A stretch of 63,640 nucleotides of DNA, counting the filler, from Aduncisulcus paluster (taxonomy: Eukaryota): NCBI GenBank assembly GCA_024181965.1. It is 28 parts of 28 records of this genome, joined end to end, with 100 filler letters (N's around TTAATTAATTAA, not from the genome) between each part and the next. Parts side by side here need not be neighbours in the genome. Positions count along the whole stretch, not along the records: positions 14,587 to 15,793 come from BQXS01006582.1; 27 more parts are not named here. One strand, given 5' to 3'. How positions within the stretch are numbered: the stretch's first letter is position 1; every line of letters begins with the position of its first letter. Of this stretch, positions 9,099-44,482 are shown piece after piece. The notes under the pieces were generated by a model. It ran no database searches. It was not told the origin of the DNA and was given only the letters and a program-made list of their open reading frames with translations. Position numbers and translations under genes: made by a program.

Positions 9099-10429
9099 GA
9101 GGAGGTTCCGGAGCGCCCGTTCCGCCCGCGCCGCCAGTACAAGATCCAGGAAGTGATCAAGCGCCGGCAGGTCATGCTGGTGCAGGTCGTTAAGGAGGAG
9201 CGCGGCAACAAGGGCGCCGCGCTGACCACCTATCTGTCGCTCGCCGGCCGCTACGCCGTGCTGATGCCCAACACCGCGCGTGGCGGCGGCATCAGCCGCA
9301 AGATCACCTCGGCCCAGGACCGCTCGCGGCTCAAGGAAGTGGTGCAGGATCTCGACGTGCCCGAGGGCATGGGGATCATCCTGCGCACCGCCGGCGCCTC
9401 CCGCAGCAAGCCGGAGATCAAGCNNNNNNNNNNNNNNNNNNNNNNNNNNNNNNNNNNNNNNNNNNNNNNNNNNNNNNNNGACGCTGAAGTCGCAGGCGCC
9501 GACCCTGGTCTACGAGGAAGGCTCGCTGATCAAGCGCTCGCTGCGCGACCTCTACAACAAGGAGATCGACGAGATCCAGGTGGCGGGCGAAGCCGGCTAC
9601 CGCGAAGCACGCGACTTCATGAAGATGCTGATGCCGGCCAATGTGCGCGCGGTGAAACAGTATCGCGACGGCCAGCCGCTGTTCTCGCGGATGGGCGTCG
9701 AAAGCCAGCTCGACGCGATGTTCTCGCCGACCGTGCAGCTGCGCTCCGGCGGCTACATCGTGATCAACCAGACCGAGGCGCTGGTCTCGATCGACGTCAA
9801 CTCCGGCCGCGCCACGCGCGAGCACCATATCGAGGACACCGCGCTCAAGACCAATCTGGAAGCCGCGGAAGAAGTCGCGCGACAGCTGCGCCTGCGTGAC
9901 CTCGCCGGCCTGATCGTCATCGACTTCATCGACATGGACGAGAAGCGCAACAACCGCGCGGTCGAGCGCAAGCTGTCCGACTGCCTGCGCCAGGACCGTG
10001 CGCGGATCCAGGTCGGCCGCATCTCGCATTTCGGCCTCCTGGAAATGTCGCGCCAGCGCATCCGCGCCAGCATGCTGGAGAACTCGACAGAGCCCTGCCC
10101 GCAATGCGGCGGCTCCGGCCACGTCCGCTCGGTCTCGTCGGTTGCGCTGCAGCTGCTGCGCGGCATCGAGGAAATCCTGATGAAGGGCGCGACCCACAAT
10201 CTGGTGGTCCGTACCCGCACCGACGTCGCGCTCTACGTGCTCAACCACAAGCGCGGCCATCTGCGCGACCTCGAAGACGCCTTCCGCGTCTCGCTGTCGA
10301 TCGTCGCCGACGCCACCGTGCACGGCCAGCAATCCTACATCATCGATCGCGGTGAGCAGGTCCATACGCTCGAAGCCGCCAAGGCGCTGCTTGCCGCGCA
10401 GGCGGCCGCCGCGCCGGCGCAGGTCGATG
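9099..10429 (+). CDS. rne: Ribonuclease E/G, internal fragment (Bradyrhizobium-like)
   Basis: VQVVKEERGNKGAALTTYLSLAGRY, INQTEALVSIDVNSG, QLRLRDLAGLIVIDFIDM and the CPQCGGSG Zn-link. Confidence 0.93.
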
Positions 10430-10529
10430 NNNNNNNNNNNNNNNNNNNNNNNNNNNNNNNNNNNNNNNNNNNNTTAATTAATTAANNNNNNNNNNNNNNN
10501 NNNNNNNNNNNNNNNNNNNNNNNNNNNNN

Positions 10530-12247
<1,718 letters not shown>

Positions 12248-12347: not shown

Positions 12348-13292
12348 GGCAGACGTTTGCCGAGAGGCGCAAGACAGAAGAAAGTGACTCCTGAAGCGTG
12401 GCAAAGGTATGGACAAATCATTGCTGACAAGAGACCTGACCTGAGGGCGAAATTTGACGAATTTGCGAGAAGTTCAATCGAGAAGTATGGCTTTGACGTG
12501 GATGGAACATGTTTGGGAGATAGGAAGTATGTTGGAGGAGAAGGACACACCAGAGGCCGGTATATACCCAGAGAAAGAATCATGAAGAAGGATAAACCCT
12601 GCTGGAACTGCAAAGAACTTGGACATTTTACCCGAGAATGTACTAAACCAATGCAAACCGCCGATATTATTCAAGCAAACCGTAACCTGTACTTCACAGA
12701 CAGGAAAGCTTTCTTTGCGAGTAAACCCTCTGGTAGATACCCGAAAGAGTTAAAGAAAACAGAAGAAGGAAACCCCCAAACCCAGAGAGATGTCTCTAAA
12801 ATCATCGACAGCATCTTTGCTGGTATTCAATACACGAGGAAACCCTCAACCCAACCCAACGTTTTATTAATCGATACCCTCAGGAACAAACCCGATGAAA
12901 AGAAGGAGGAGGAGAAAATTATAAGCGAAGAAGAAGCCTGGGGAACAGAGTTCGACATGTTTGTCGAGGAAACCTTAGCGAAACAAGCTAGTCGAATAGG
13001 AAAGAGAAGAGGGAGCGAGATCCCACTCGTGGAAAACTCAAAGGCCTGGGGAGTCACCCCGACAAGGAAACCGTTGACACCAGCACCCACATCTGATACT
13101 GAGAAACCCCAAGAACGGTTCCAACCCAAGAGGAACTACAGAAGACCCCCACCTGGGATCAGATGGCAGGACTGGAAAGAACACGTAGACAATCTCTGCG
13201 AAGAACTCGAAGACAAACCCAAGTCTGAGGAAGAGGACGAGGATCAAAGACCAGAGGAAACCTCTAAATCAGAAGAAGAACCCGTTGGTTAA
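12348..13292 (+). CDS. CCHC zinc-knuckle protein, Gag/nucleocapsid-like (eukaryotic retroelement, partial)
   Basis: CWNCKELGHFTREC fits C-X2-C-X4-H-X4-C; Lys/Glu/Pro-rich C-terminus. Confidence 0.6.
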   Translation, partial: GRRLPRGARQKKVTPEAWQRYGQIIADKRPDLRAKFDEFARSSIEKYGFDVDGTCLGDRKYVGGEGHTRGRYIPRERIMKKDKPCWNCKELGHFTRECTKPMQTADIIQANRNLYFTDRKAFFASKPSGRYPKELKKTEEGNPQTQRDVSKIIDSIFAGIQYTRKPSTQPNVLLIDTLRNKPDEKKEEEKIISEEEAWGTEFDMFVEETLAKQASRIGKRRGSEIPLVENSKAWGVTPTRKPLTPAPTSDTEKPQERFQPKRNYRRPPPGIRWQDWKEHVDNLCEELEDKPKSEEEDEDQRPEETSKSEEEPVG

Positions 13293-13501
13293 AACTCTGT
13301 AAGAATGCAAGAAAAGTGGAAAAAGAAAGTGATGGAAAGCCTTTATTGGCAGAAGAACCCNNNNNNNNNNNNNNNNNNNNNNNNNNNNNNNNNNNNNNNN
13401 NNNNTTAATTAATTAANNNNNNNNNNNNNNNNNNNNNNNNNNNNNNNNNNNNNNNNNNNNGTTTTATGTGGAGGATTTTGATTTAAAATTCTCCAACTTT
13501 G

Positions 13502-13504
<3 letters not shown>

Positions 13505-13566
<62 letters not shown>

Positions 13567-13677
13567 TCAAGGCTCGCGGAACTTCCCGCACAGTGACTAC
13601 AAGCAAGCAAGTAATCACAAGCCCCGTATTACGCAAGCATAACACTAAGGGCGCGCAGTCCAGACAACTCACCGGAA

Positions 13678-13713
<36 letters not shown>

Positions 13714-14486
13714 GATACAGGGACGTATTCAGCGCACGTTGATGACGTGCACTTACGAGGTATTCCTGGTTCATGAGGGAAAATTACAAACCTCAATCCC
13801 CAGCGCGGACGGTTTTCACAAGATTACCCCAAACGCACAGCATACAAAGACAAAAGCCAATGTTTACCGCACATACCCCTTCGGGCTAGGAGACAACGGA
13901 TGCCAGCACTGCAAGTAGGACTTACCAACCACCGAAGTGACCAGTAAGTGAATCCAACTCCGTTACCAACTCGTTAATCAGAGCTCGTTGAACCGTCCAT
14001 TTTATTACGCGTGCAGCCCAAGACCATCTAAAGGGCATCCCTGACCTGTTGTTGCCAATAACTTCCCCTCGCTTGCGCAAGTAGTCCCTCTAAGAAGCGA
14101 AGAAGATGGAATCCCCGAAGGGTACACCTCCCAATTACGACACTTTCGCCAGCCGAGTTGGACACTGAATAAAAGCCATGAACCATAAGTTTCCCCACCA
14201 ACCGAAGTCAATGAAGTCGCAAACAGATCATGCCCAATTCAACATCCAGTCAACTGAATGTCATAACCGCTATTTAGCAGGTATTGGTCTCCTTCGTTAT
14301 CGCAATAAAGCAGACCGATCACTCCACGAACTAAAAACGGCCATGCACCACTCATCAAACAATCATGAAAGAGCTATCAATCTGTCAATCCTTCGAATGT
14401 CTGGGCCTGGTAAGCTTCCCCGCGTTGAGTCAAATTAAGCCGCAGAATCCACACCTGGTGTAGATCTCCGTCAATTCCTTTAAGTT
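13505..14486 (-). rRNA. Eukaryotic 18S (SSU) rRNA, 3' half with long expansion segments; ITS1 begins at 13504-13461
   Basis: Reverse-complement landmarks GATCCTTCCGCAGGTTCACCTAC, ACCTTGTTACGACTT, GACGGGCGGTGTGTACAA, ACGGCCATGCACCAC, GAGTCAAATTAAGCCGCAG and CCGTCAATTCCTTTAAGTT. Confidence 0.97.
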
Positions 14487-14586
14487 NNNNNNNNNNNNNN
14501 NNNNNNNNNNNNNNNNNNNNNNNNNNNNNNTTAATTAATTAANNNNNNNNNNNNNNNNNNNNNNNNNNNNNNNNNNNNNNNNNNNN

Positions 14587-14914
14587 CATGCCTAACTTCT
14601 TGGTAAAGCTGAGAAGTCTTCTGGGAGCTGCAACGCTTACAGTACACCAGAGAAGAGTTGCGAAGGTTGTGGGAGCTCACACCATGAAACAGATGCAAGA
14701 AATTGCAGCTGGTGGGGAAAATGAGTTCCTGGTCGATTGCCTACTGGATCACAGAGGTAAATCCAAGAAAGAACTGGAGTTCCTCGTATCCTGGAGTGGG
14801 TATGAACCGGAGGAAAACACTTGGGAACCATACCGAGAACTCAAGGACACGATTGCCTTGGATGAGTACCTTGAGGAACATGAGGACCTCAAGCATATCA
14901 TTGGTCACCCATAA
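14587..14914 (+). mobile_element. Chromovirus-type (Ty3/gypsy) pol 3' end with chromodomain, followed by a purine-rich tract
   Basis: EFLVDCLLDHRGK..LEFLVSWSGYEPEENTWEP..L is a canonical chromodomain; the stop is followed by AAAAGGAGGAGGAAAAGA (PPT-like) and TG at 14946. Confidence 0.7.
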
Positions 14915-14947
14915 AAGGAGGAGGAAAAGACCAGGGAATTAGAAATG

Positions 14948-15076
14948 ATGAATTATGACAATGCGTCATGGTAGTCAATTGCTGAAGTAAAATAATTTAC
15001 AAGTTTTAATGAGAAATGAATTATGACAATGCGTCATGGTAGTCAATTGCTGAAGTAAAATAAATTTACAAGTTTT
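14948..15076 (+). repeat. Two near-identical ~60-bp direct repeats, possibly inside an LTR
   Basis: ATGAATTATGACAATGCGTCATGGTAGTCAATTGCTGAAGTAAAATAA(A)TTTACAAGTTTT at 14948-15007 and 15016-15076. Confidence 0.9.
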
Positions 15077-15100
15077 TGAAAAAATTTAAAAAATAATTTA

Positions 15101-15425
15101 TGGTGACCGAACATGAATCAGTCACGTGTCAGTTTCGGGTGTAGAGAGTGTTTCCAAACTCTACTATTGTTTTCCCCAAGGTATATGTTGATAGCTTTCT
15201 ATCTAACAGCATAGCCAAACCGAGTCTGATGATATTACTCTAGGACACCTAAAAACGCGCGAGGGGGGATTTGATCCCCCCCCGCGTGAAATAGCCGCCG
15301 TTATCCAGAGATTATTTCACTCAGACTGGTCACTGTCGCGGGGAAGGTCCCGGGGGTGGACCCGGGGGCCCAGGTTTGAACCTGGACTGGCCATGCTGTG
15401 AAGCACCTACCATTGAGCTACGTGC
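15101..15425 (-). ncRNA. Candidate structured RNA or SINE with a tRNA-like Pol III head
   Basis: Minus-strand A box TAGCTCAATGG (15420-15410) and B box GGTTCAAACC (15382-15373), then at least six helices; GC-richer than the AT-rich flanks, with T runs just downstream. Confidence 0.55.
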
Positions 15426-15965
15426 TTATGATAAATTTATATTAAAATTTATATTTTTTGAGTCAATTTTGGAAGTCTCGATTTTTCGTCGAAATCTTTC
15501 ATCAGAATTGACTTTTGTTGACTTTCCGATATTTTGACAATACAGCCGGAATGATGGATAACTTGATAGAAATATCTTCGTTATGGAAGGCAGAGTGTAT
15601 TGGCTCAGAATAAAATACAGCAATTATGATATTTTATTCTGAATTGTATTATTTTTATCTTATTTTAATTTTATTTCCTTGTTCTTTGTAATTCTCGAAG
15701 TCTATTTTTAGATTACACAGTTCATCCTTTTTCAAGTAAATTTGCTCAGCTAGTACAGTGTATCAAAGGTTTGGATATTAAACATCACAAGACNNNNNNN
15801 NNNNNNNNNNNNNNNNNNNNNNNNNNNNNNNNNNNNNTTAATTAATTAANNNNNNNNNNNNNNNNNNNNNNNNNNNNNNNNNNNNNNNNNNNNTCCCTAA
15901 AATTTTTATCAATTCATTTTATCACTCCACTCCTTTATAACTTGCTCGGAAAAAAATACTTTTTT

Positions 15966-17075
15966 CTAATTATCATCTATACTCCAAGATAATGTTTGGT
16001 TTTCAAAAAGTGGTACAACTGTTTCATTTTTATAAGTGTACTGTGATGGTACTACAAAATCTTTTTTAATAAGTGTTACAGTTTTTGGAAGTGGTTTAAG
16101 TCCATAGATTTTTTGTGCATTTAAACTTACAAATGCATTTAAATTATCTAATTTTTCATGCTCTTCAAAAAGTTGTGTTAATACTTGTAGGGCAATAGGT
16201 GATGAAAATATTCCAGCAGCTCCATGATGACACTCTTTTGTATNNNNNNNNNNNNNNNNNNNNNNNNNNNNNNNNNNNNNNNNNNNNNNNNNNNNNNNNN
16301 NNNNNNNNNNNNNNNNNNNNNNNNNNNNNNNATCTTTTTGATGTGGTGCTGAGTCTGAACCAAACATCACTTTAGGATGTGCACTTAGGGCTAGTTCTTG
16401 TAAAGCTTTTCTATCTTCAGGTCTTTTGACTATTGGTTTGCAAAAAACATGAGGATTTAACATACCACCTGCTACATCATCTAAAGTTAACATCAAATGA
16501 TGAACAGTAAGTGTTGCATAAAGATTGTCATATTTTTTAAGTAATTCAATTGATTCTTTACTTGAAATATGTTCCATAATGATTTTTAACTCTGGAAAAT
16601 TAATAGCCAATGATTCATAAATAGGTAAAAACTCTTTTTCTCTATCCATGATAAAACCTTGTGTTTCTCCATGTACACATACTGGAATACTAAGCTTAGA
16701 CATCGATTCAAGAGTCGGTCTTAAAACTTCCACATCCATAGAAGACACACCTGTTTCAGAATTTGTTGTTACTCCAAAAGGGTATAGTTTAACTGCAATT
16801 ATCTCATCTTTTATATCATTTAAAAATTCATATGTATAATCAACTTGAAAAAATATTGTGACATGTGCTTGAAAATCATCATCTTTAGATGCCTCGAGTA
16901 TTCTTCTTTTATATGAAAGCAAAGCATCTTTTGTTGTAATTGGAGGTAAGATATTTGGCATGATGAGTGCCCCAGAAAATTGTTTTGAGGTGAATGGTGC
17001 CACAAGTTTTAGCATATCATCATCTCTTAAATGAAGATGCATATCAAGGGGTGAATTTATTGTAAAGTTTTTCAT
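15966..17075 (-). CDS. pyrC: Dihydroorotase, homodimeric type (Campylobacterota)
   Basis: DMHLHLRD, MPN, KLYP.GVTTNS, HGE, MEHIS, CKP and GSDSAPH. Confidence 0.95.
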   Translation of the reverse strand: MKNFTINSPLDMHLHLRDDDMLKLVAPFTSKQFSGALIMPNILPPITTKDALLSYKRRILEASKDDDFQAHVTIFFQVDYTYEFLNDIKDEIIAVKLYPFGVTTNSETGVSSMDVEVLRPTLESMSKLSIPVCVHGETQGFIMDREKEFLPIYESLAINFPELKIIMEHISSKESIELLKKYDNLYATLTVHHLMLTLDDVAGGMLNPHVFCKPIVKRPEDRKALQELALSAHPKVMFGSDSAPHQKDXXXXXXXXXXXXXXXXXXXXXXXXXXXXXXTKECHHGAAGIFSSPIALQVLTQLFEEHEKLDNLNAFVSLNAQKIYGLKPLPKTVTLIKKDFVVPSQYTYKNETVVPLFENQTLSWSIDDN

Positions 17076-17457: not shown

Positions 17458-19144
17458 GTCAACGGTCCGCTGGCGCTCGCAGTCTCCGACCGGCTCCAAC
17501 AGCGCTACGGTGTCAGCGAGTCACCCACCGCCACCGACGACGGCATCGTGGTGCGACTGCCCGACACCGATGACAATCCGCCCGGAGCAAGTCTTTTCGT
17601 CTTCGACGCCACGGAAATCGAGGCGATCGTGACGCGGGAGGTCGGCGGGTCGGCACTCTTCGCCGCACGGTTCCGCGAATGCGCTGCGCGTGCCCTGCTG
17701 CTTCCCCGACGAACCCCCGGCCGCCGATCGCCGCTGTGGCAGCAGCGGCAGCGGTCGGCGCAGCTGCTGGATGTCGCACGCAAGCACTCCGACTTCCCGA
17801 TGGTCTTGGAGNNNNNNNNNNNNNNNNNNNNGTGTACGACATCGGAACCCTGGTGCGGCTGATGTCGGGTATCGAGCAGCGCCGGATCCGGATCGTGGAG
17901 GTGCAGACCGACACACCTTCGCCCTTCGCGGCCGCGCAATTGTTCAGCTATATCGGCGGATTCATGTACGACGAGGATCGGCCGCTGGCCGAGCGGCGTG
18001 CCGCCGCCCTCTCGCTGGACACCGGTCTGCTCGCCGAGCTGATGGGCCGGGTCGAACTGCGCGAACTGCTCGACCCCACTGTCATCGAAGCAACCGAACA
18101 CCAACTGCAGCATCTCGCCGAGGACCGCAAGGCCCGCGATGCCGAGGGCCTTGCCGATTTGTTCCGGCTTCTCGGCCCCCTCACCACCGGCGAGATCGCC
18201 GCGCGCTGCACCGGGCCCGGCACCGACTGGCTGCATGAACTCGTCGGCGCCCGAAGAGTGGTCGAGACCCACTACGGACAACGCACCTGGTGGGCCGCCG
18301 TCGAGGACGTGGCACGCCTGCGTGACGCGCTCGGGGTGCCGGTGCCGCCGGGCGTACCGGCGGCGTTCACCGACGCCGCGGCCGATCCGCTCGGTGAACT
18401 GTTAGGTCGATACGCACGGACACATGGCCCATTCACCACGGGCCAGGCTGCGGAGCGCTTCGGCATCGGAGTCCGGGTCGCCGCGGACGCCCTGTCTGTG
18501 ATGGCGTCGCGCGGCCAGTTGGTGCGTGGTGAATTCACCTCTGATGCAACAGACTCTGAACAATGGTGCGATGCTGAGGTCCTCAGGATTCTGCGCCGCA
18601 GGTCGCTGGCCGCGCTACGTGCCCAGGTGGAACCCGTCAGCACGTCGGCATTCGCGCGGTTCCTGCCCGATTGGCAGTACCTCGATTCGAGCCTGCGCGG
18701 CGTCGACGGAGTGGCTACCGTCATCGATCAACTCGCCGGGGTGCCGATACCCGCGTCCGCGTGGGAACCGCTGATTCTGGCACGTCGCGTCCGTGACTAC
18801 TCTCCCCAGATGCTCGACGAGCTGCTGGCCTCGGGAGAGGCGGTGTGGTCGGGACATGGCTCGATCTCCGCACAAGATGGCTGGATCGCGTTGCACCCCA
18901 GCGGTGTTGCGCCCGCCACGCTGGCCGCCACCGATCCCGTTGTTCTCGATGAGGCCCATCGAACGATTCTCGACGGCCTCGCCGCCGGCGGCGGATACTT
19001 CTTCCGCCAATTCGGTGACGCCGCGACCAGGGCCGCGCTATGGGACCTGGTGTGGGCGGGCCTAGTGACCGGAGACACCTTCGCGCCGGTGCGTGCACTG
19101 CTGGGAACCAGTACCAAATCGCGCACCGCGCACCGGAATCGGCG
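17458..19144 (+). CDS. lhr: Lhr-family long helicase, internal/C-terminal fragment (mycobacterial)
   Basis: SALFAARFRECAARALLLPRR..PLWQQRQR, PSPFA, RYARTHGPFT and WEPLIL.RVRDYSP.MLDEL. Confidence 0.9.
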
Positions 19145-19244
19145 NNNNNNNNNNNNNNNNNNNNNNNNNNNNNNNNNNNNNNNNNNNNTTAATTAATTAA
19201 NNNNNNNNNNNNNNNNNNNNNNNNNNNNNNNNNNNNNNNNNNNN

Positions 19245-22417: not shown

Positions 22418-23397
22418 GAAGTTTTTCAAGAAAAGTGCTTGAAAAAGATAAAAAAGATATGGAAGAGTTTTCAAAACTAAGGGATGAGGAGCTAGCTCAA
22501 GTTAAAAAAGCTGATTCTCTTTACCTTAACCGTGCATCTATAACCACAGGCATGATAAATATCCACGATATAGCTTGGGGAGATGAGGGTCTTTGGGTAG
22601 TAAACTCAACTTTTTCTTGTCTTAGTACTCTTAGTCCAGATAGCTCTTTTGTAGCTAGATGGAAACCAAAGTTTATATCTGAACTTGTACCTGAAGATAG
22701 ATGTCACCTAAATGGTATGGCTATGTTAAATGGAAAGCCAAAATATGTAACCACTTTCAATATGGAAGACTCTAGAGATTCATGGAGTGAAGGTAGGATC
22801 GACTATGGCACACTCATAGATGTAGATACTCATGAAATNNNNNNNNNNNNNNNNNNNNATGAAATACTAATTGAGGGGATGCTTATGCCCCATTCTCCAA
22901 AAGTATATAAAGGTGAGGTTTATGTGTGTGAATCTGGTCTTGGCTTAGTTTGGAAATATAATCCAAAAACAAAAGAGAAAACACAAGTGGTAAAACTTCA
23001 AGGTTTTACCAGAGGCTTATTTTTTTATGGGGGGCTTATGCTTGTGGGGACTTCGCAAGTAAGAGCAAGTGNNNNNNNNNNNNNNNNNNNNNNNNNNNNN
23101 NNNNNNNNNNNNNNNNNNNNNNNNNNNNNNNNNNNNNNNNNNNNNNNNNNNNNNNNNNNNNNNNNNNNNNNNNNNNNNNNNNTAAGTAAAGAGTATGATG
23201 AGACATATGTAGGGGTTTGGATGATAAATCTAGAGGATAATAGTACTGTAGGTTATATAAGATTTGATGGTGATGTTGATCAGATTTATGATATTGCAGT
23301 AATTCCAGGTAGTGTGATGCCTGAGCTTTTGGATGTGGAGAATGTTCTTAGCAGACATTTATTTGATTTTAAAAATTTAATAGGAGAAGAGATATGA
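22418..23397 (+). CDS. TIGR03032 (DUF4915) family protein, partial
   Basis: TG.INIHDIAW, VNSTFSCL, WKPKFISELVPEDRCHLNGMA, MPHSP and GFTRGL. Confidence 0.88.
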
Positions 23398-23844
23398 GGT
23401 ATTTATGGTTACTACTTAGCTTTAGTGTATTTATTTTTGCAGATAATATAACTTTAGAAAGTTTTAATAAGCTCAAGGCTATAAAAGAGAAAAAAATAGA
23501 AGTGATAGAAATTAAAGAATATAATTCATTATATATTTTAAAAGGTAAAAAACAAACAAAAAGAGGTCTTTTACCTATTCTTTTTTATGTTACTAAAGAT
23601 TTAAAATATGTTTTTATTGGAAGAGCTTATTCTAGTGATACTAACGAACCCGTTTTTATTCAAAGTGACATGAATAAATATAAAAAATATGCCAATTTTA
23701 CTTTTGGTGAAGGGAAAGATGAATATTTCCTTTTTACAGACCCTGAATGTCCATATTGTAAAAAGTTTGAAAAAATGTTATTTGAAATTGATTCCCAAAA
23801 AGATATAAGAAAGAAGATAAAAATCTATTATTTTTTATTTCCAT
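23394..23844 (+). CDS. DsbC-like thiol:disulfide isomerase (partial)
   Basis: Signal peptide, N-terminal dimerisation-like YVTKDLKYVFIG, and active site FTDPECPYCKK; ATGA overlap with the upstream gene. Confidence 0.85.
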
Positions 23845-23988
23845 NNNNNNNNNNNNNNNNNNNNNNNNNNNNNNNNNNNNNNNNNNNNTTAATTAATTAA
23901 NNNNNNNNNNNNNNNNNNNNNNNNNNNNNNNNNNNNNNNNNNNNGGAACATCGCCGGGGTTCAGCGAGTCCGCTAGTTCTACGGCCCA

Positions 23989-25647
23989 CTAGGTCCATTG
24001 GGGTTCAACGGATTCCTTCACCTTGCCGTCCTCACCGAAGATGAGGAAGCGGGTGAAGGTCCGCGCGAACCATCGATCGTGAGTGACCGCGATGACGGTG
24101 CCGTCGAAGGCCGTCAGCGCGTCCTCCAGCGCCTCCGCCGAGTGCAGGTCGAGGTTGTCGGTCGGCTCATCGAGCAGCAGCAGGGTTGAGCCCATCAGCT
24201 CCAGCAGCAGGATCTGAAAGCGGCCCTGTTGTCCGCCGGACAGCGAGCCGAAGGTCTGCTCGGCGGATGCTGCCAACCCGTAGCGGNNNNNNNNNNNNNN
24301 NNNNNNNNNNNNNNNNNNNNNNNNNNNNNNNNNNNNNNNNNNNNNNNNNNNNNNNNNNNNNNNNNNNNNNNNNNNNNNNNNNNNNNNNNNNNNNNNNNNN
24401 NNNNNNNNNNNNNNACATGATGGTGGGTCTGCGCGAACCAGCCGGGACGTACCCGCGCACCCAACCGGAGTAGTCCGCCGTGGCGCACCGGTTCGGGAAT
24501 CATCTCGCCAACCGGCAGCTGATCCTGCTCCGGATCGGTGCCGCCGCAGGCCAGCAGCCGCAGGAAATGTGACTTGCCGGTTCCGTTACCGCCCAATACC
24601 GCGACCCGGTCGCCGTACCACAGCTCGGCATCGAATGGGCTTGTGAGGCCGGTTAATTCGAGATTGTCCGCGATCACGGCACGTTTGGCGGTGCGTCCGC
24701 CCGCAAGACGCATGCGCACGTTCTGTCGCAACGGCACCGCTTCGGGCGGCCCCGCCTCGTCGAACCGGCGCAGCCGGGTCTCGGCGGCCTGCAGCCGGCT
24801 GGCCATATCGGAGTTGTAGGCCGCCTTCTGCCGGTACATCAGCACCAGATCGCGCAGCGCCGCCCGCTGTTCATCCCAGCGGCGACGCAATTCGGCGAGT
24901 TTGGCATTGCGGTCCGCGCGGGCCTGGTGATACGTCGCGAACGAACCCGGATGCACCCACAAGGTCGATCCGGACCGTGTGGGTTCCAGCGTGGCGACCT
25001 GTCCGGCCGCGCGATTGATCAGCTCGCGGTCGTGGCTGACGAACAGGACGGTCTTCGGAGACTCGGCGAGCTTCTCTTCGAGCCAGCGCTTGGCCGGGAC
25101 ATCGAGATAGTTGTCGGGCTCGTCGAGTAGCAGCACCTGGTGGGGTCCGCGCAGCAGCGATTCGAGGACCAGCCGCTTCTGCTGACCTCCGGAGAGCGTG
25201 TTGACCCCGCGAAATCTGGCCAACTCGTAGGGAATTCCGAGCGCGGCCATGGTGTGCACGTCACATTCGGTCTCGAACTCGTAGCCGCCCACATCGGCCC
25301 AGTCGGCCAGTGCTTGCGCGTATTTGAGTTGATCGGGCTCGCTGTCGCGCTCAATGAGCACCAGCTCCGCACGGTCCAGGCGCTCGGCGGCCAACCTGAC
25401 GCGATCGGGTGCCACCGACAGCAGTAGATCGCGGACCGTCGAATCGTCACGAACCGATCCGATGAACTGCCGCATCACGCCGAGCTGCCCGCCACGGGTT
25501 ACGGCTCCGTCGTGTGGATCGGCATCACCGGCGATGATGCGCAGCAGTGTCGTCTTGCCGGTCCCGTTGGGGCCGATCAACCCCGTTTTACTGCCCTCAC
25601 CCACGCGCAGGCTGACGTCGTGAAGTAGTGCTCTGCCGTCCGGGAGG
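23989..25647 (-). CDS. ABC-F family ATPase (actinobacterial), 5'-truncated
   Basis: Two ABC domains (GPNGTGKT/LSGGQ/LLLDEPDN and GGNGTGKS/LSGGQ/LLLDEPTD) with a helical linker and no transmembrane segments. Confidence 0.92.
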
Positions 25648-25747
25648 NNNNNNNNNNNNNNNNNNNNNNNNNNNNNNNNNNNNNNNNNNNNTTAATTAAT
25701 TAANNNNNNNNNNNNNNNNNNNNNNNNNNNNNNNNNNNNNNNNNNNN

Positions 25748-25989
25748 GCTTGTAGTACTTTACCCTCACCTATGTAGTTTGTAGTTGCTATAGCACTTGC
25801 TGCTACTATACCACCTTGAACAGTCATCTTAAGAGTATCTGATAGCATCTCATTTTTTGATATTTGTGCTTTTTGATATCTTTGATAATTTAAAGCACCA
25901 GAAACAATAGAGGATGCAATAGCACCACTTATAAAATGCCCTGTTACACTTCTAGGTGCACCTGTATCAATAGCAAAATTACTTAACAT
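25748..25989 (-). CDS. MamC-like small membrane protein (partial)
   Basis: MLSNFAIDTGAPRSVTGHFISGAIASSIVSGALNY...QGGIVAASAIA has two Gly/Ala-rich helices around a charged loop; its start overlaps the upstream stop. Confidence 0.5.
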
Positions 25990-26271
25990 CTTCAATCTCT
26001 TTATCTACAAATTTCAACTCTTTTGTTTTCAGTTTTTCCACTTTCTCAACANNNNNNNNNNNNNNNNNNNNNNNNNNNNNNNNNNNNNNNNNNNNNNNNN
26101 NNNNNNNNNNNNNNNNNNNNNNNNNNNNNNNNNNNNNNNNNNNNNNNNNNNNNNNNNNNNNNNNNNNNNNNTTGAAGCACCTTCAATTACTTTTTCTTTG
26201 ATCTCTTTTCTATTGTTGATTGCTACTACGGCCACTGCCCCTGCTGCTAATCCTGCTATAAACGGTAACAT
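25979..26271 (-). CDS. Small GxxxG membrane-anchored protein (FezA/YtxH-like)
   Basis: MLPFIAGLAAGAVAVVAINNRKEIKEKV...KEIEDVK*; N-terminal GxxxG helix with a charged tail; spans a gap. Confidence 0.6.
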
Positions 26272-26272
26272 T

Positions 26273-27074
26273 TTATTCCCCTTCTTCTTTTTTATCATTC
26301 ATCATTTTCACTAGTTGCATAGCACCTAGTCCACCTAAAAGTACTCCACCAATAGATGCCATATCGACACTATTGAATACTTTTAAAACATCTTGTTCAT
26401 TTACTTTTCCACTTGCTAGTTTTGTAGCAATATTTCTAAACTCATCTACTTTTGATAACATCTCTGTATTTTCAACTGCATTATGTTGTGTATTGTTTTC
26501 ATATACTTCTGTTAGATTTGGTTCTACATTTGTATAAGAAATAACACTTTGCCTAAATGCTGGTAGATGATTGTTATAAGAAGCTGCTTGCAGTCTGTAG
26601 AGTGTATCTTGAATATCTGGATACTGATCTACATATAAAAGTAGATTATCATACATCTGTATATTATCAATCTCAGCAGCCACACCCACTTCACAACACT
26701 CTACTAAAGTATTTGGTAAAACTATTTTCTCGTACCAGTCGTTTACAGGCAATGGTACATTATATTTTTCAAGTAATTTTATCAACTCTTCATAATGTCT
26801 TATCTCAGCTTCGATGATATTTGTAAAAGGCATTTGATTTCCAAATGTTTCTATCACTTTTCGATATGTTTCATACGCATGATATTCATCATAAACAGCN
26901 NNNNNNNNNNNNNNNNNNNNNNNNNNNNNNNNNNNNNNNNNNNNNNNNNNNNNNNNNNNNNNNNNNNNNNNNNNNNNNNNNNNNAATTCGTAAAACTTGG
27001 TGCAAAATCTCTTCATTGTAGTTTGGATCAACTCGTAATTTTACCAACAAGTCTGCATCGTTATTTATTTGCAT
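26273..27074 (-). CDS. Ferritin-like (DUF2202-type) protein with a C-terminal GxxxG helix
   Basis: DEYHAYETY, EAEIRH (ExxH), AEIDNIQMYD and SYNNHLPAF form a four-helix metal-binding pattern; C-terminal IGGVLLGGLGA; AGGAG RBS and TAA-ATG coupling to the upstream gene. Confidence 0.8.
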
Positions 27075-27330
27075 TTAGTTTATCTCCTTTTTTAGGTTTT
27101 CGATAATTTTCACTACCTCATCTAAATTTTCACCATTAATTAAGTCATCCCATTTCTCTTTTGGAAAAATCTCATTATTGTACTCAATAGTTACAGATGC
27201 GATAATTTTATTTATCTTTATCTTTTTTATTCCATTTATCTTTTGTGGTAGTGTTTCAATATCACTTAAAGATACATCAGAAACCTCATCTTTTATTTTT
27301 GGGTTTACTCTTACTCGTAATCTCCCTTTC
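27075..27330 (-). CDS. HMA2-like heavy-metal-associated domain protein (partial)
   Basis: Manual translation KGRLRVRVNPKIK...INGIKKIKINKIIASVTIEYNNEIF...ENLKKEIN* shows the GRLR / N-x-x-x-x-S-x-x-I-x-Y pattern. Not in the ORF track. Confidence 0.7.
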
Positions 27331-27430
27331 NNNNNNNNNNNNNNNNNNNNNNNNNNNNNNNNNNNNNNNNNNNNTTAATTAATTAANNNNNNNNNNNNNN
27401 NNNNNNNNNNNNNNNNNNNNNNNNNNNNNN

Positions 27431-27577
27431 CAAAAGAATGCACAAGTTGCAAGTGATACACAAGATATTGCTATGCAAACACAAAGTATTGCACAAGATG
27501 TTTTAGATGATGCAAACCAAAAACAATTTATTGGTAAAGAATCAATCACTATGCAAAGTATTACTAATAATAAATAA
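27431..27577 (+). CDS. Methyl-accepting chemotaxis protein C-terminal tail
   Basis: QKNAQVASDTQDIAMQTQSIAQDVLDDANQKQFIGK matches the tail of the convergent MCP (QENASIAS...[10 protein letters not shown]). Confidence 0.7.
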   Translation, partial: QKNAQVASDTQDIAMQTQSIAQDVLDDANQKQFIGKESITMQSITNNK

Positions 27578-27629
27578 AAAAGTATCTTAACCTCAATATA
27601 CTTTTTTAACCAAAACAACTTTACACAAT

Positions 27630-27664
27630 AAAAAAGGGAGAGTCAAAATAACTCTCCCTTTTTT
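27630..27664. terminator. Bidirectional rho-independent terminator
   Basis: AAAAAAGGGAGAGT-caaaata-ACTCTCCCTTTTTT between two convergent MCP genes. Confidence 0.9.
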
Positions 27665-27699
27665 ATTGACTAAATTTTCGAATAGAAAATGGCAAACTT

Positions 27700-28662
27700 T
27701 TAAAAGCTTGCCCATTCATCATCTGAACTGTTTGAAACAATTGGTTTTATATTTTTGTTTGTAGTAGATGTGATTGTTTTTTTCTCTACTACTTTAGGTG
27801 ACTTTTCTATCATTTTAGGAGTAGAATGAGGAGTTGATGTACTTTCTTTCGCTTTTACAGAATCTTTTCCGCTAAATTCTTTTTCATTTGCATCTGATAC
27901 AACCAATTTTGCTATATTGTCTGTTTGAACTGCTACTGTATGTGTCTGCGATGCAATTGAAGCATTTTCTTGAGTTTGCTTATCTAAAGAACTTATTGCA
28001 TCATTAATTTGAATAATAGCTGATTGTTGCTCTTTTGATGCACTCTCTACATCTGTAATAAGTTCTAAAGTTTTCGAGATATTTGAACTAAGCCCTGTAT
28101 ATCCATGAATCATTTTATCTGCAATGTTTTTACCGTTATTTGCTTTTTCTGTTGCATTTTCAACTAATGACTTGATCTCATTTGCAGCTTCAGCACTTCT
28201 TGCAGCCAAATTTCTTACCTCTTGAGCAACAACAGCAAAACCTTTTCCAGCTTCACCTGCAGTTGCAGCTTCAACAGCGGCATTAAGTGAAAGAATATTT
28301 GTTTGAAATGCAATTTGATCAATCACTTTAATCGCTTCGTTTATAGATGTTACTTGTTCATTGATCTCATCCATAGAGTTTGTAGTTTCTGTTGCAAGCG
28401 TCTGCCCTTCTTGTGCTGAATTTGTTAAAGAGTTAGCAAAGCCTGCCATTCGTATAACATTTTCAGTATTATGAGAAATACTACTTGTCATCTCTTCTAA
28501 AGCAGCTGAAGTTTCCTCTATCGCTGCGGCTGCTTGATTTGAATTTTTGTTTAAAATATCAACATTTTTCAAAAGAGTATTACTACTTATATCTAAAGTT
28601 AAACCATTTGATTTATTTTCAATAAGCATTTTAGTAATTGCATCGCCTAAAGTATTTATTGC
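27700..28662 (-). CDS. Methyl-accepting chemotaxis protein signalling domain
   Basis: [37 protein letters not shown] and a C-terminal pentapeptide EWASF. Confidence 0.95.
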
Positions 28663-37290: not shown

Positions 37291-38823
37291 ATGATCGAAC
37301 TGACCATCGCCGAGATCGTCGGTGGATACCTCCACGGGATCAGTGCGCAGGAGGCTCGACAGACGCGGGTCACCGGCACCGTCGAATTCGATTCGCGTCA
37401 GGTGACGCCCGGTGGGCTGTTCCTCGCCCTGCCTGGAGCCCGGGTCGACGGCCACGACCACGCCCAGGGTGCGGTCGCGGCCGGGGCCGTCGCGGTGCTG
37501 GCCGCCAGACCGGTCGGTGTGCCCGCCATCGTGGTGTCGCCGACCGGGGTGGCGCGGACCGAAGTTTCTGCGCTGGAACATGATTCGGATGGATCGGGCG
37601 CTGCGGTGCTGGCCGCGACGGCCGCGCTGGCAGCCGAGGTGGCCCGGCGGCTGGCGGCCCAGGGACTACGCATCGTCGGCGTGACCGGCTCGTCCGGAAA
37701 AACGTCGACGAAGGATCTCATCGCCGCGGTACTCAGCCCGCTCGGCGAGGTCGTGGCGCCTCCCGGATCCTTCAACAACGAGCTCGGTCATCCCTGGACC
37801 GTCCTTCGAGCGACGGAATCGACAAAGTTCCTGGTGCTGGAGCTTTCGGCCCGGCGTCCCGGCAATATCGCGGACCTGGCCGCCATCGCGCCGCCGTCGG
37901 TGGGTGTCGTGCTCAATGTCGGCACCGCTCATCTGGGTGAGTTCGGCTCGCGGCAGGCCATCGCCGACACCAAGGGCGAACTGCCGCAATCGCTTTCCGC
38001 TGACGGTGTGGCGGTGCTGAACGCCGATGATTCCGCGGTGGCCGCAATGGCCGCCAAGACGTCGGCCCGGGTGGTGCGCACCAGTGTGCATAATCCCGCC
38101 GATGTCTGGGCCGGCGAGGTGANNNNNNNNNNNNNNNNNNNNGTGAGCGTCGACGATCTCGCCAGGGCCCGGTTCACCCTGCATGTCGGGCCGAGCTCCG
38201 TGCCGGTTCAGCTGGCGGTGCACGGTGAGCATCAGGTGGGCAACGCGCTGGCCGCCGCCGCGGTAGCGCTGGAGTGCGGCGCCACCCTCGGGCAGGTCGC
38301 CGCCGCGCTCGCCGAGGCCGGCCCGGTCTCGCGCCGCCGCATGGAGGTCAGCACTCGACATGACGGAGTGACCGTCATCAACGACGCCTATAACGCCAAT
38401 CCGGATTCGATGATGGCAGGGCTGAAGGCGCTGGTCTCGATGGCCCGCCACGGTGCTCAGCCCCGTCGCAGCTGGGCGGTGTTGGGCGAGATGGCCGAGC
38501 TGGGTCCCGATGCGATATCCGAGCATGACCGCATCGGCCGGGCCGCCGTGCGATTAGATGTCAGTCGATTGGTAGTCGTCGGGACTGGGAGGTCACAGCG
38601 GGCAATGCATGCGGGTGCGGTGATGGAGGGGTCGTGGGGGTCCGAGGCGGTGCTGGTGGACGATCCTGCGGCAGCCGCCACACTGCTGGCCGGCGAGCTG
38701 GCCGCGGGCGATGTGGTGCTGGTCAAGGCATCGCAGTCGGCCGGGCTCTGGGTCGTGGCCGATGAGCTGCTTGCGCGAAGAGGCGACAGTTCCGATGAGC
38801 TGCTGAAGGTGGATGACGCATGA
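37291..38823 (+). CDS. murF: UDP-MurNAc-tripeptide:D-Ala-D-Ala ligase
   Basis: [34 protein letters not shown] and LGEMAELG. Confidence 0.95.
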
Positions 38824-39290: not shown

Positions 39291-39769
39291 CCAGCGCCGC
39301 CGGACGCGACGCATTGCCCTTTCCGGAGATGCCGAGATTGACCGGAAAGGCGTCGAACGACTGGATCATCCGCCCCATGTGCCACGGGCCGGGCGTGCAG
39401 GTGGTGGCGAAGGTGCCGTGCGACGGACCGGTGCCGCCGCCCAGCATCGAGGTGACGCCCGCCATCAGCGCGTGCTCGATCTGCTGCGGGCAGATGAAAT
39501 GGATGTGGCTGTCGAATCCACCCGCGGTAAGGATCTTGCCCTCGCCCGCGATCACGTCGGTGCCGGGGCCGATCACGATGGTGACGTTGGGCTGGNNNNN
39601 NNNNNNNNNNNNNNNNNNNNNNNNNNNNNNNNNNNNNNNNNNNNNNNNCGCCGCGATCATGCCCTCCTTGATCGCGACGTCGGCCTTGACGATGCCCCAG
39701 TGATCGACGATCAGCGCATTGGTGATGACGGTGTCGGCCGCGCCCTGCGCATTGGTCACCTGCGACTGC

Positions 39770-39804
<35 letters not shown>

Positions 39805-40628: not shown

Positions 40629-43600
40629 CCACGAGCCTGGAGACGCTTACGCTGAATAACATTGACATTGCGCCGAACACTGATTTCTCGCGTCTGACGT
40701 CTCTGCGTGCATTGTACTTGACTGTTGGAGCCGTTTCTTCTGGCGACTACTGGGCGACTCAGCTGTCGTCCCTGAGTCCTCTTTTCGACTCTGACAATCA
40801 CTATGATGTGACTGTGCAAGGCATGTTCCCATCGTCCCTGACCACGCTTTCCATCTCTGGGCGCACGAACGTCACGTTCCCCGGGTTCTTTTCGAGTCTT
40901 GCCCTGTCCGATGGGTCAGCCCTCCCCGCGCTGACGACGTTGGATCTGAGTGGCACGAGCGTGTATGACTTGTCTCCTGTGCCAGCGACGGTGACGTCAT
41001 TGAATGTGATGGAAGGTTTAATTGATGGGTTGGGTTACGAGGACTCATATTTTGTCAACGATAGCCGTGATCTTGGTTCAATCCCATCCACTGTAACAGA
41101 GCTTACTATTGGAACTATACTCTATGATCTGGACTTCATCGATAACCTTCCAAATCTTGCTAGTTTGGATTTGATTGGTTGTATCATCTATGATCTTTCC
41201 AAGCTATCTCAAGTGAAGGACACGCTCGAACATTTCAGGGTGTCCTATGCCTATGTTTCCTGTCATATATCTGTCTTGTCTGAGCTGACAAATCTGAAAT
41301 ATTTGGAATTATCTGATTTTAATGTTGTTTTCCCTTCAATATTTCCTGATCTTTCCTCCCTTTCTTCTTTGACCCATCTTGATCTCAGTTATTTTTATAG
41401 TGATGATATTGACTGGGATCTGGGATGGATTTCATCCTTACAATATTTGGAGTATTTAGACCTAGATGATGCATCTGTTGATTTTGAAAGTTCATATTTA
41501 TCCAACATTGCCAATATGAAAGTTCTTAAAATATATGAAGTTGGTGATACATCCATTTCTTACTCTTTTCTCGAAAATGCTTCGAGCTTGGAATCTTTGA
41601 GCTTTGGTTGGCCATATGACGATTGCAATGACATACCTGATATGTCCAATCTGCCCAATCTCCAACAATTGACGATGAATTGTTGTTCAATTGATGACTC
41701 TGATCTCCAGAATATCGCTCAATTGGCTAATTTGGAAAGCTTAACATTGGGTTCAGATTATAATTGTAGTTACCCTTCTGACATCTCCCCCTTATCTACT
41801 CTTTCCTCTCTCAAGACTTTGAATATGGGTTATATGTATAAACTTTCCGATGTATCCATTCCTTCCCTTCCTTCCCTTGAGTATTTGAGCCTACCTAATT
41901 CTTCTTCCTCTGTTGTTCCCGATCTTTCTATTGTACCCAAGTTGCGTGTGTTTTCATGGGACGATTCTTCTATTTCAGACTTCTCCAACCTATCCACTGC
42001 TCCTACACTCCAATCAATTGTTTTCTCTGATTATAGTTTGTCTGATGCCACACAATTTTCATCTGTTCTATCCTCCATGATAAGTTTGACAGATGTTACC
42101 ATTGAAGTATCTAACCCCACCTCTTCCACATTCGATCTGGGTTCAGTTACGAGTCTAAAATATCTAAATATAAGTGGAGCTTGGATTGATATGTCTGAAG
42201 CCATTCTTCCTCCAAATGTAAGAGAGTGTATTCTAGATGGTCTTGGTATCTCCACGGCTCCAGACTTGTCATCCTTGACCAGTCTTCAGGTTCTTGATCT
42301 TGGAGACAATTCTCTATCAGATATTTCATTCCTTTCAGCCGAATCCTGTCCTTCATGCTCTTCTCTGAAGGAATTGCATCTTGATGGTAACTCTATTGAG
42401 GACATCTCTCCTCTCAGTGGGATGACATCTCTTGAATGGTTAAGTTTACGTGATAATTCTATATCTGATATCTCTCCTCTTTGCAATATTGAAGCATTGA
42501 ATTATCTCGATTTACATGACAATTGTATAAGTGATTTATCTCCACTTTCACAACATGAAAATTTATATTATCTTGATATTTCAGATAATTCTGTTTCTGA
42601 TCTCACAGTTCTTTCAAGCCTTCCAGGGTTATTGAGCTTGTTAGCGAACAGCAATGATATTACAGATATTTCCCCATTAGAATCTACTATTTCACTAAAA
42701 TATTTGGATTTAAGTTCGAATAATCTTACGGATATTGCATCGATAGAATATCTTCCGTCATTGAGTGTTTTGGATTTATCTGGTAATTTAATTTCTGATG
42801 TTTCATCCCTTTCTTCTTTAGTTTCACTCAACTTCTTGTTTTTGAACGATAACAATATTGTTGACGCATCTCCTTTATCAACACTCACCTCTCTTGTCTA
42901 TCTATTTATTTCAGATAATGAAATCGCGATATTCGACGGTTTGGGACTAAATTCCTTGAAAACTTTGGATGCATCTAACAATTATCTTTCAGATATTTCA
43001 TTCCTCAATTCCATGAATCAACTTTTGTATCTTTATATTTATAATAATGAAATTGAAGATATCTCTCCGATTATTAACTTATCCAATACTCTTTTGTATC
43101 TTGATTTAGAGGATAATATGATTGAAGACATCACACCTATTACTCATATAACCAAAGCATTTATAATTGATCTCTCTGGAAACAATATTAGTGATTTGAC
43201 TCCATTATCATCATTCCATCCGAGTTATCTTTACGATTTTGATCTTGCTTATAACAAGATCAGTGATGTTTCTCCAATTTTTGGAATCTCAAACTTACTT
43301 GAGACAATCGAACTTGATATTAATCTTTATAAAAACTACATTTGCTTTGGAAATGAAGATGAAGATGATTTGATTGAATTGTTTGAGTCCGATAACATTT
43401 CTATTTATCAAGTTGGACAAACATGCAACTGCCCTTCTCTAGACCCTGACTCTGACAGCACCATTGCAGCCATCTCTAAACGTCTTGTGTGCTCTGAGAC
43501 TGCTCCTTCCTCCAACACCTGGAATGTGACCTGCATGAGCGACTCATATTACACGTACTCTGATTCGGACACATTCACATGCACACGTTCTGCCGACTGT

Positions 43601-43721
43601 TCTGGTGGGTGTGAGTATGGCTCCGAATGCCGTGTGAACTCCGATGGCACTCATGGGTGTGCTAGTGTTGTGCCTGATGTGGGCTTGCATGGCTGTGTGT
43701 CCGACCTGATCGATGCTGCTG
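40629..43721 (+). CDS. Large internalin-like LRR protein fragment with a Cys-rich module (eukaryote)
   Basis: Dozens of 22-aa LxxLxLxxNxIxDIxPL repeats followed by a Cys-rich segment; the frame is open at both scaffold ends. Confidence 0.85.
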
Positions 43722-43821
43722 NNNNNNNNNNNNNNNNNNNNNNNNNNNNNNNNNNNNNNNNNNNNTTAATTAATTAANNNNNNNNNNNNNNNNNNNNNNN
43801 NNNNNNNNNNNNNNNNNNNNN

Positions 43822-44427
43822 ATTGGAAAACTTCACGCTTTCAGGCAAGTAGCGGCGAAGCATAGACCTGTCTCTTTGTTTGGAAAGCACATCGAGCATC
43901 CACTGGCTGTAAACGTGTCCTTTAGACGCCTCTTGATATATGCCTTCAAGAAGCTGAGCCGCATCGTGGAGGCTGGTGTAATTTTCAAGGCCCATACGGG
44001 CAGCGGCAGTATCCATCATTTTACGCTGTAGAACTGTTTGATCCCCACCAAGGCCACTTATATGTGCATTGATTTTATCCATGTTAAAAAGATCAATAAG
44101 CAGATTGGTGGCCGTGTTGTCGCTTAAAATAATCATCAGGGAAGCCATGTCATCAAGGCGCCAAGAGGGCTGATTCAGGTCGCTAAGAAGACTAAAGGAG
44201 ACCTTTTCTTCTGGGGGCACAGGCAGGATATCCTGAGGGCTGTAGAGACCTTTTTCAAAGGCATCAGCACACTTTGACAGAATAAATAGCTTTATAATAC
44301 TCGCAGACCGTACCTGCTTATGGATGTTTTTTTCATATAGGGTAGTCCCTGTACTCAGGTTTTTGAATAGGACGGACACATCAGCTGTTTGTTTGTCTAT
44401 AATACTGCTCAGTATTTCTATATTCAT
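43822..44427 (-). CDS. Class A beta-lactamase-like serine hydrolase (Firmicute-like, partial)
   Basis: SIIK (SxxK), SDN, LQRKMMD and ENYTS; AGGAGG RBS upstream of ATG 44427. Confidence 0.85.
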
Positions 44428-44482
44428 AAAGCCTCCTGTTTTGATTTAAGTCTATTTAGAAGNNNNNNNNNNNNNNNNNNNN

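Follow-up and report, generated by a model that had tools for sequence, protein, structure and literature searches.

We analyzed a 63,640-nt stretch of DNA (the window) from the fornicate protist Aduncisulcus paluster, in which an initial annotation had noticed a structured block of about 325 nt (positions 15101-15425) with a tRNA-like RNA polymerase III (Pol III) head on the minus strand. The block is genuine: its minus strand folds far better than shuffled controls (z -8.07) and the promoter-like boxes are in place. It is not a free-standing gene, and when it is considered in the context of its own contig it very probably forms part of the 3′ non-coding region of a multi-copy chromovirus, where it would lie in the U3 part of the 3′ long terminal repeat (LTR), or in the 3′ untranslated region (UTR), of this Ty3/gypsy element. 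More tentatively, and leaving its activity aside, we read the block as a tRNA-derived Pol III module, resembling a short interspersed element (SINE), that lies antisense within the LTR or 3′ UTR of the retrotransposon.

The block lies behind the pol gene of a chromovirus

The block sits in a gap-free contig of 1207 nt (14587-15793), which brings into view the last 109 codons of the element's pol gene and 880 nt of non-coding DNA. The features discussed below are as follows:

14588-14914, plus strand: 3′ end of the pol open reading frame (ORF), open at the 5′ end of the contig; integrase C-terminus with chromodomain (Pfam Chromo, 3.1e-12) and TAA stop
14913-14930, plus strand: polypurine tract (PPT) of 18 purines, overlapping the pol stop codon (14912-14914); candidate plus-strand primer
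14948-15076, no strand: AT-rich tandem repeat, 68-nt unit present 1.9 times (Tandem Repeats Finder, 98% matches)
15079-15093, minus strand: T6-AAA-T6 immediately past the 3′ end of the block; may be a distal Pol III terminator
15101-15425, minus strand: GC-rich self-complementary block (51.7% GC, 21.3% in each 75-nt flank)
15206-15399, minus strand: core domain with multiple branches and a closing helix of 12 bp, 15206-15217/15388-15399 (minus-strand z -8.3, plus-strand z -4.6)
15251-15286, minus strand: 13-bp GC hairpin (15286-15274/15270-15258), then T5 (15255-15251); possible early Pol III stop
15370-15425, minus strand: degenerate, putatively tRNA-derived head; A box (15420-15410) and T-arm-like hairpin (15385-15370) with a 6-nt loop
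15426-15793, no strand: AT-rich remainder of the contig, with minus-strand TATAAA at 15453 and 15441, a hairpin with AATAAA, and sequencing depth that rises from ~15548 on
15605-15642, no strand: perfect 13-bp hairpin with AATAAA (15609) in its 5′ arm, from the inverted-repeat search

The first 47 aa of the chromodomain ORF coincide exactly with the end of P0001, a publicly deposited partial protein. Pfam places P0001 in no family, and its residues 3-66 match the catalytic cores of retroviral integrases, those of prototype foamy virus (PFV) and others, at E values of 1.5e-6 to 4e-5 (1.5e-6 being the best of the 66 chains listed at E<=1). Together, the chromodomain and the integrase match of P0001 identify the ORF as the C-terminal part of a chromodomain-bearing Ty3/gypsy integrase and the element as a chromovirus; the order of integrase followed by C-terminal chromodomain is the one that defines this group, and as in other chromoviruses the integrase core and the chromodomain are followed by a stop codon overlapped by a polypurine tract. 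Two further partial proteins, P0003 and P0004, are 97% and 84-85% identical to the ORF in the window. There are thus three diverged versions of the ORF end, all named from Aduncisulcus paluster, which is the sole source of named relatives of this pol ORF, and their divergence indicates that the element is present in this organism as several diverged copies.

The 18-purine tract is the only purine run of at least 12 nt in the contig, and its length was reached in 27 of 5000 shuffles of the contig. Its position suggests that it serves as the PPT and marks the start of the 3′ LTR. Right after it comes the 68-nt tandem repeat, the register of which reaches back to 14937 in the repeat search; LTR elements often carry tandem repeats in the region after the polypurine tract. 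The block begins 170 nt past the tract and lies ~190-510 nt downstream of the pol stop (186 nt separate the end of the ORF from the block), antisense to pol. The GC edges of the block coincide with the tRNA-like 5′ end on one side and with the T6 runs on the other, as would be left by an inserted retroposon of the Pol III type.

Several limits for the LTR itself can be proposed. The interval 14946-15504 has 7-nt inverted ends (TGATGAA/TTCATCA); a 3′ LTR ending at 15504 and followed by unique flanking DNA was ruled out, as an exact contig of the public DNA run described below, with a depth of 11,267, spans 15431-15548. An LTR starting near 15597, after the purine-rich GGAAGGCAGAG, fits a loose contig end at 15596 and the rising depth there; since AATAAA follows after only 13 nt, hardly any U3 would remain. 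If the LTR ended immediately before the TGG at 15357, it would be without a CA end.

Two other classes of explanation for the block were rejected. It holds no notable reading frame in the standard code or in table 6, and an 80-aa plus-strand frame that crosses it had no relatives among 8 candidates. Its ends are not inverted copies of each other, which excludes a transposon with terminal inverted repeats.

The block shares the copy number of the adjoining pol end

A public DNA run (X1), comprising 66.4 million letters of contigs, carries 66% of the sampled words of 14900-15700, the interval to which its contigs were aligned. Of these contigs 166 align, 98 of them at 99% identity or above, 65 at 95-99% and 3 at 90-95%. 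The summed word depth is 22,700-28,600 at the pol end and PPT (14900-14953) and 17,300-40,200 over the block, rising to as much as 150,000 past 15548. At 15101 and 15425 contigs neither end nor branch, and the only loose ends are at 15489, 15524, 15539 and 15596. Since the depths match and there is no branching at either edge, the copy number of the block is that of the adjoining pol end, and a depth of ~10^4 in a run of 66.4 million letters points to several copies rather than a single-copy locus. In this run the block shows no sign of independent life. The hairpin at 15605-15642 lies where the depth climbs to 100,000-150,000, and could be part of the LTR's R region or of some repeat of higher abundance.

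These results bear directly on one proposal of the initial annotation, that the block is a divergent housekeeping RNA (RNase P/MRP, signal recognition particle (SRP) or telomerase RNA) with a tRNA-like leader, which would make it a single-copy gene beside which a retrotransposon happens to lie. The size of the block, its strong fold and its Pol III-like boxes would suit such an RNA, and metamonad RNAs may diverge beyond the reach of Rfam models. However, nothing in Rfam matched the block at gathering thresholds, nor at E<=10 when three stretches nested in one another (6 kb, 411 nt and 91 nt) were searched, the best scores overlapping it being 10.7-18.1 bits against gathering scores of 42-130. 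The block shares its contig and its depth with the pol end, with no drop at the junction, and that pol end occurs in at least three diverged versions. None of the conserved motifs known for these RNA families was noticed on reading the sequence, which was not a formal test. We consider a housekeeping RNA highly improbable and have abandoned this proposal.

A degenerate tRNA-like head

The minus strand carries both of the promoter elements that had been claimed for it, the A box TAGCTCAATGG at 15420-15410 and the B box or T-arm CCAGG-TTCAAA-CCTGG at 15385-15370. The A box matches 11 of 11 letters and the B box 10 of 11, and the two boxes start 38 nt apart, which gives the block the kind of 5′ head, tRNA-related and with both Pol III boxes, by which SINE2 elements are recognized. 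A pattern of the A box and half of the B box (TAGCNNANNGG-N20-50-GGTTCRA), composed after the sequence had been seen, has one match in 63.6 kb where 0.03 would be expected, and was matched in 3 of 100 shuffles. A 5-bp T stem and a 14-nt D-loop-like string are also present; these fall outside the expectation of 0.03 and make a tRNA origin more likely. The letters of the D arm, T arm and 3′ acceptor may resemble the tRNA-Cys type, a resemblance of which no use is made here. Motifs of the form TATAAA stand on the minus strand 28 and 16 nt upstream of 15425.

The head is not an intact tRNA, as had been recognized from the start: it lacks an acceptor and an anticodon stem, and neither ARAGORN nor Rfam reports a tRNA there. 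At default settings ARAGORN found 0 tRNA genes in the whole window. Folding of the head alone is not significant on either strand (z -2.0 minus, -0.4 plus).

The fold favors the minus strand

Folding energy relative to shuffled controls had been named beforehand among the tests by which a structured RNA could be refuted, and the block passed it. The minus strand from 15425 to 15095 folds at -140.9 kcal/mol, compared with -97.2 ± 5.4 for shuffles, none of which was as good (0/100), and the plus strand at -122.3 kcal/mol, compared with -100.9 ± 5.2 (z -4.09). The signal comes from the core at 15206-15399 and not from the head. Among the six helices proposed at the outset, five are fully complementary as given, whereas the arms of 15186-15194/15199-15208 are of unequal length and the minimum free energy (MFE) fold uses just 5 bp of it (15190-15194/15199-15203). 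The letters for the suggested long-range pairing are present as well (GTGACC at 15333-15328 and GGTCAC at 15108-15103).

Strand preference was also argued from two A-C mismatches on the plus strand, 15262:15282 and 15108:15120, and both do become G-U pairs solely on the minus strand. A third such site, 15213:15392, lies in the 12-bp long-range helix, so that three long helices have one transition mismatch each and all three are G-U on the minus strand, an indication that is weak when taken alone. The MFE fold has 102 pairs for the minus strand and 108 for the plus strand, with only 41 in common. The minus strand is genuinely preferred, though only to a moderate degree.

A fold so strong on both strands could belong to palindromic GC-rich DNA of the U3 or 3′ UTR, such as a promoter, an enhancer or a recombination product, with box letters that arose by chance and no role as RNA. 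Both strands do beat their shuffles by far and are about equal in 150-nt windows, as is the case for inverted repeats in DNA; the head itself is not significantly structured, no tRNA model matches it, and the box pattern was defined post hoc and can be met in shuffled sequence. Against this, the boxes are accompanied by the 5-bp T stem and the D-loop-like string, neither of which was counted in the expectation, the transition mismatches of all three long helices are G-U on the minus strand, and over the full length the two strands differ (z -8.07 vs -4.09). We regard chance boxes in palindromic DNA as quite unlikely.

Could the plus strand dock a primer tRNA?

The head may also be read on the plus strand, as a part of the retrotransposon's RNA that is complementary to a primer tRNA, in which case the GC-rich part to its left would be structured R-U5 or U3 RNA. 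In one version, the site would be an extended primer-binding site (PBS) following an LTR of ~430 bp, and the contig a collapsed pol-LTR-PBS-leader path, which a short-read assembly can merge into one. In the other, it would lie in U3 and, as in Ty3, offer a 3′ docking site where the primer's T and D arms can pair. A PBS is expected to have the tRNA sense on the strand opposite pol, as is the case here; the plus strand runs from TGG (15357-15359) to the T-arm complement and on to the D-arm complement; the site lies ~430 nt past the polypurine tract, a typical LTR length; and the plus strand too folds significantly (z -4.09). There is also precedent in excerpts of PMC5371799, in which the T-psi-C arm of the Ty3 primer pairs with a 3′ component of the PBS and the D arm with viral RNA in U3, and the PBS of Ty1 is bipartite. 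The plus strand of the block resembles these systems in carrying the D-arm and T-arm complements downstream of pol, the Ty3 site being in U3 (PMC5371799, excerpts).

The resemblance does not extend further. The Ty3 segments are short and match tRNAiMet, whereas the match of the block covers generic tRNA letters only, and the fold of the block prefers the strand opposite to the genomic RNA. No TG...CA termini flank the site, and the closest CA precedes the TGG by ~24 nt; the CCA follows the T stem at a distance of 10 nt rather than 8, in a hairpin loop; and the base facing tRNA position 72 implies G72, which is unusual in a tRNA. Paired with a real tRNA, the 6-nt T loop would produce a bulge, and ARAGORN found no tRNA gene in the window from which a primer could come. 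Taking both sides together, a docking site for a primer is the strongest rival to the reading that we prefer, though we think it unlikely.

A proposed SINE-like insertion

Our preferred, tentative reading is an antisense module of tRNA origin. A tRNA-derived, SINE2-like Pol III retroposon would have inserted into the LTR or 3′ UTR of an ancestral copy of the chromovirus and would since have been copied together with it. The 5′ end of its minus strand would be a worn tRNA-derived segment, in which the A box is kept, the B box nearly so, and the cloverleaf lost. Two suggestions of the initial annotation are joined in this reading: that of a Pol III RNA carried by an LTR and linked to the chromodomain ORF is favored by the position of the block 170 nt past the PPT, and that of a tRNA-derived SINE holds as a possible origin, though no independent copy of the block was seen in the window or in run X1, and it has no A-rich tail and no convincing target-site duplication.

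Several observations weigh against this reading. The T loop has 6 nt (TTCAAA) instead of the canonical 7, which is why the strict 11-nt B box GGTTCRANNCC has 0 matches. ARAGORN found no cloverleaf on the minus-strand head at -ps, -ps90, -ps80 or -ps70, and the Rfam tRNA model gave no match at E<=10, even in the 91-nt search. Over windows of 150 nt there is little to choose between the folds of the two strands (z -5.2 vs -5.7 at 15187-15336), and the MFE fold of the plus strand has more G-U pairs (11) than that of the minus strand (9). There is no second copy of the block in the window, where the search returned just the tandem repeat and chance matches of 12-16 nt. The minus-strand block ends in GGTCACC followed by T6-AAA-T6 and has no A-rich tail, and the sole candidate for a target-site duplication is a 9/10 match, all A/T, in AT-rich flanks, which is not significant. 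Among the X1 contigs shown, exact ones have depths of 3,273, 9,987 and 11,267 and variant ones of 7.5-14.4, and the variants may be read errors rather than diverged copies. The candidate limits of the LTR disagree among themselves. Lastly, the internal T5 falls inside the long-range helices of the best fold, which makes a 325-nt Pol III RNA and that fold hard to reconcile.

Searches beyond the window also failed to reveal a dispersed family. An exact 19-nt pattern from the head found one locus in metagenome_contigs (L001), which is alike over those 19 nt only, and an exact 22-nt pattern had 0 matches in genome_contigs and 0 in viral_contigs, in scans that would miss diverged copies. Such copies may exist on the contigs that encode P0003 (791 nt) and P0004 (1319 nt).

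Whether the boxes still work is a separate matter, and we find it doubtful. The T runs are where they had been reported on the minus strand, with T6 at 15093-15088 and at 15084-15079 and an internal T5 at 15255-15251. If the boxes do work, TFIIIC and Pol III would start near 15430 and in most cases terminate at the T5 that closely follows the 13-bp GC hairpin, yielding an antisense RNA of ~175 nt. An RNA of 325-335 nt with the whole fold would require read-through to the T6 runs (15093-15079). The predicted product would therefore probably stop at the T5 and be without the best-scoring fold.

A stronger proposal would be an active Pol III gene borne by the LTR, with an antisense RNA of ~175 or ~330 nt retained for the benefit of the element or the host, either for antisense regulation of the element or as a TFIIIC-bound chromatin boundary. 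The A box and near-B box stand at Pol III spacing, TATAAA motifs precede them on the minus strand (15453 and 15441), T5 and T6 runs follow on the correct strand, and the minus strand folds better than the plus strand both over the full length (z -8.07) and in the part up to the T5 (z -4.0 vs -2.1). LTR-borne Pol III promoters are documented (PMC10886601, excerpts), and the arrangement would be like that of Cassandra and Helenus, but in an autonomous element and in reverse orientation. On the other hand, the T5 cuts the best-supported long-range fold, and TATA-like strings are expected anyway in flanks of 21% GC. Judged on these sequence features, a gene kept for its product is improbable.

Comparison with known elements

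The closest parallels are found among LTR elements that carry pieces of small-RNA genes, which we compare here with the block on the basis of excerpts of PMC10886601 (Kojima 2024). Helenus, which with Cassandra and Ajax makes up the group TRIMp3, has a tRNA-derived sequence within the LTRs of non-autonomous elements, in which the box letters are kept although it is non-functional as a tRNA (PMC10886601). The block has TAGCT...TGG and GGTTC where Helenus has a box A of TRGCY...YGG and a box B of GGTTC, and in both cases the tRNA-derived stretch lies in a terminal non-coding part of an LTR retroelement (PMC10886601). For LTRs of the Helenus and Cassandra type, the proposed origin is a SINE that inserted into an LTR (PMC10886601, Kojima 2024).

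The differences are also clear. The elements of Helenus are protein-free TRIMs of 311-1263 bp, whereas here an integrase-chromodomain ORF is on the same contig (PMC10886601); non-autonomy, a length below ~1.3 kb and the lack of pol, which characterize Helenus and TRIMp3, do not describe the element that holds the block. The tRNA-like part of Helenus occurs in LTRs, while the block is seen in the one 3′ non-coding region that its contig covers (PMC10886601). Cassandra, the one validated member of TRIMp3, has a sense Pol III promoter that drives its own RNA, whereas the block is antisense (PMC10886601). It shares with the block a Pol III promoter of small-RNA-gene origin and a terminator within LTR sequence (PMC10886601), but it is a 5S rRNA-derived, sense, non-autonomous plant element for which transcription is reported, whereas the block is seen at the level of sequence. 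Autonomous partners of such elements must use Pol II, as the processivity of Pol III is weak (PMC10886601); an antisense module is not in conflict with this need.

Like SINE2 elements, the block combines a tRNA-related 5′ head, which has A and B boxes, with a body of unrelated sequence, and its length of ~325 nt is within the range of 100-700 bp given for SINEs (PMC10886601, excerpts). It differs in having neither an A-rich tail nor one derived from a long interspersed element (LINE), no clear target-site duplication and no dispersed copies seen, and in a body that is unusually stable (core z -8.3).

Composition of the window

The window consists of 28 separate scaffolds and contains 83 runs of N. 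The scaffolds are joined by 27 spacers, each a 12-nt TTAATTAATTAA with 44 N on either side (for example 14487-14586 and 15794-15893), and further N gaps occur within scaffolds. False neighborhoods and false ORFs result when these spacers are read as continuous DNA. The 18S rRNA fragment (13461-14486) and an amidohydrolase ORF (15966-17075) that stand near the block in the window sit on other contigs and are not its genomic neighbors.

The GC content of the scaffolds spans 25% to 70%, and Pfam and Rfam scans show their ORFs to be a mixture of bacterial genes (flagellar rod, GyrB, RNase E/G, Lhr, Mur ligase, chemotaxis receptor, CarA, aldehyde dehydrogenase and ABC ATPase) and eukaryotic pieces (a gag-like zinc-knuckle ORF, the chromodomain ORF and a 3′ fragment of 18S rRNA). 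The bacterial fragments are of very different GC content (e.g. 557-1732, 9280-10485, 10837-12245, 17679-19196, 27700-28629 and 37291-38823, with flagellar rod, RNase E/G, GyrB and Lhr C-terminal domains, a chemotaxis receptor and a Mur ligase), which indicates that several bacterial species are mixed into the assembly. The draft genome of Aduncisulcus paluster is described as highly fragmented and as made from cultures with food bacteria (PMC9933649), material in which such a mixture would be expected.

Among the eukaryotic pieces, the 18S rRNA 3′ fragment (13513-14481, minus strand) covers Rfam model positions 1146-1823 with 422.8 and 119.2 bits. Its variable regions contain long insertions, its terminus is exactly the mature 3′ end, and its contig (13461-14486) stops at model position 1146. 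The gag-like ORF (12357-13292, plus strand; contig 12348-13360) has a CCHC zinc knuckle (Pfam, 5.2e-05). Its contig has no sequence in common with that of the block, and it may belong to the same or to another retroelement of the eukaryote.

Elsewhere, a match to the Rfam family 5_ureB_sRNA (39472-39789, plus strand) scores 77.4 bits, above gathering, on a bacterial scaffold of 62-68% GC, and is probably conserved urease-gene sequence rather than a small RNA of the Helicobacter type. The region 40629-58903 consists of longer scaffolds of 37-43% GC, with a 1021-aa leucine-rich-repeat ORF, a 1452-aa AAA_11/AAA_12 helicase ORF and several other long ORFs without a Pfam family. A phage capsid ORF (Phage_capsid_4, 9.8e-11; 60044-60760, plus strand), on a scaffold of 61-70% GC, probably represents a prophage or phage of one bacterium in the mixture.

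Implications

If the block is an inserted SINE-like module, the event itself would be an ordinary one, the nesting of a small-RNA-derived sequence in a retrotransposon, in a less ordinary setting. tRNA-derived sequence inside LTRs is already known in kind, and the block would be a further case. It also holds a practical lesson, in that a tRNA-like box pair together with a strong fold can pass for a new RNA gene if short contigs are taken for continuous DNA.

More would be at stake only with active boxes or with a site that docks a primer tRNA. That an autonomous chromovirus keeps, in every copy, an antisense Pol III unit with a tRNA promoter and a stable RNA of ~175-330 nt seems to us a long shot; were it so, the unit could be a self-encoded antisense regulator, a TFIIIC chromatin boundary or a launching pad for a new SINE family. 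Active boxes would extend LTR-borne Pol III units, or a docked primer tRNA bridging of the Ty3 type, to an autonomous element of a distant eukaryote.

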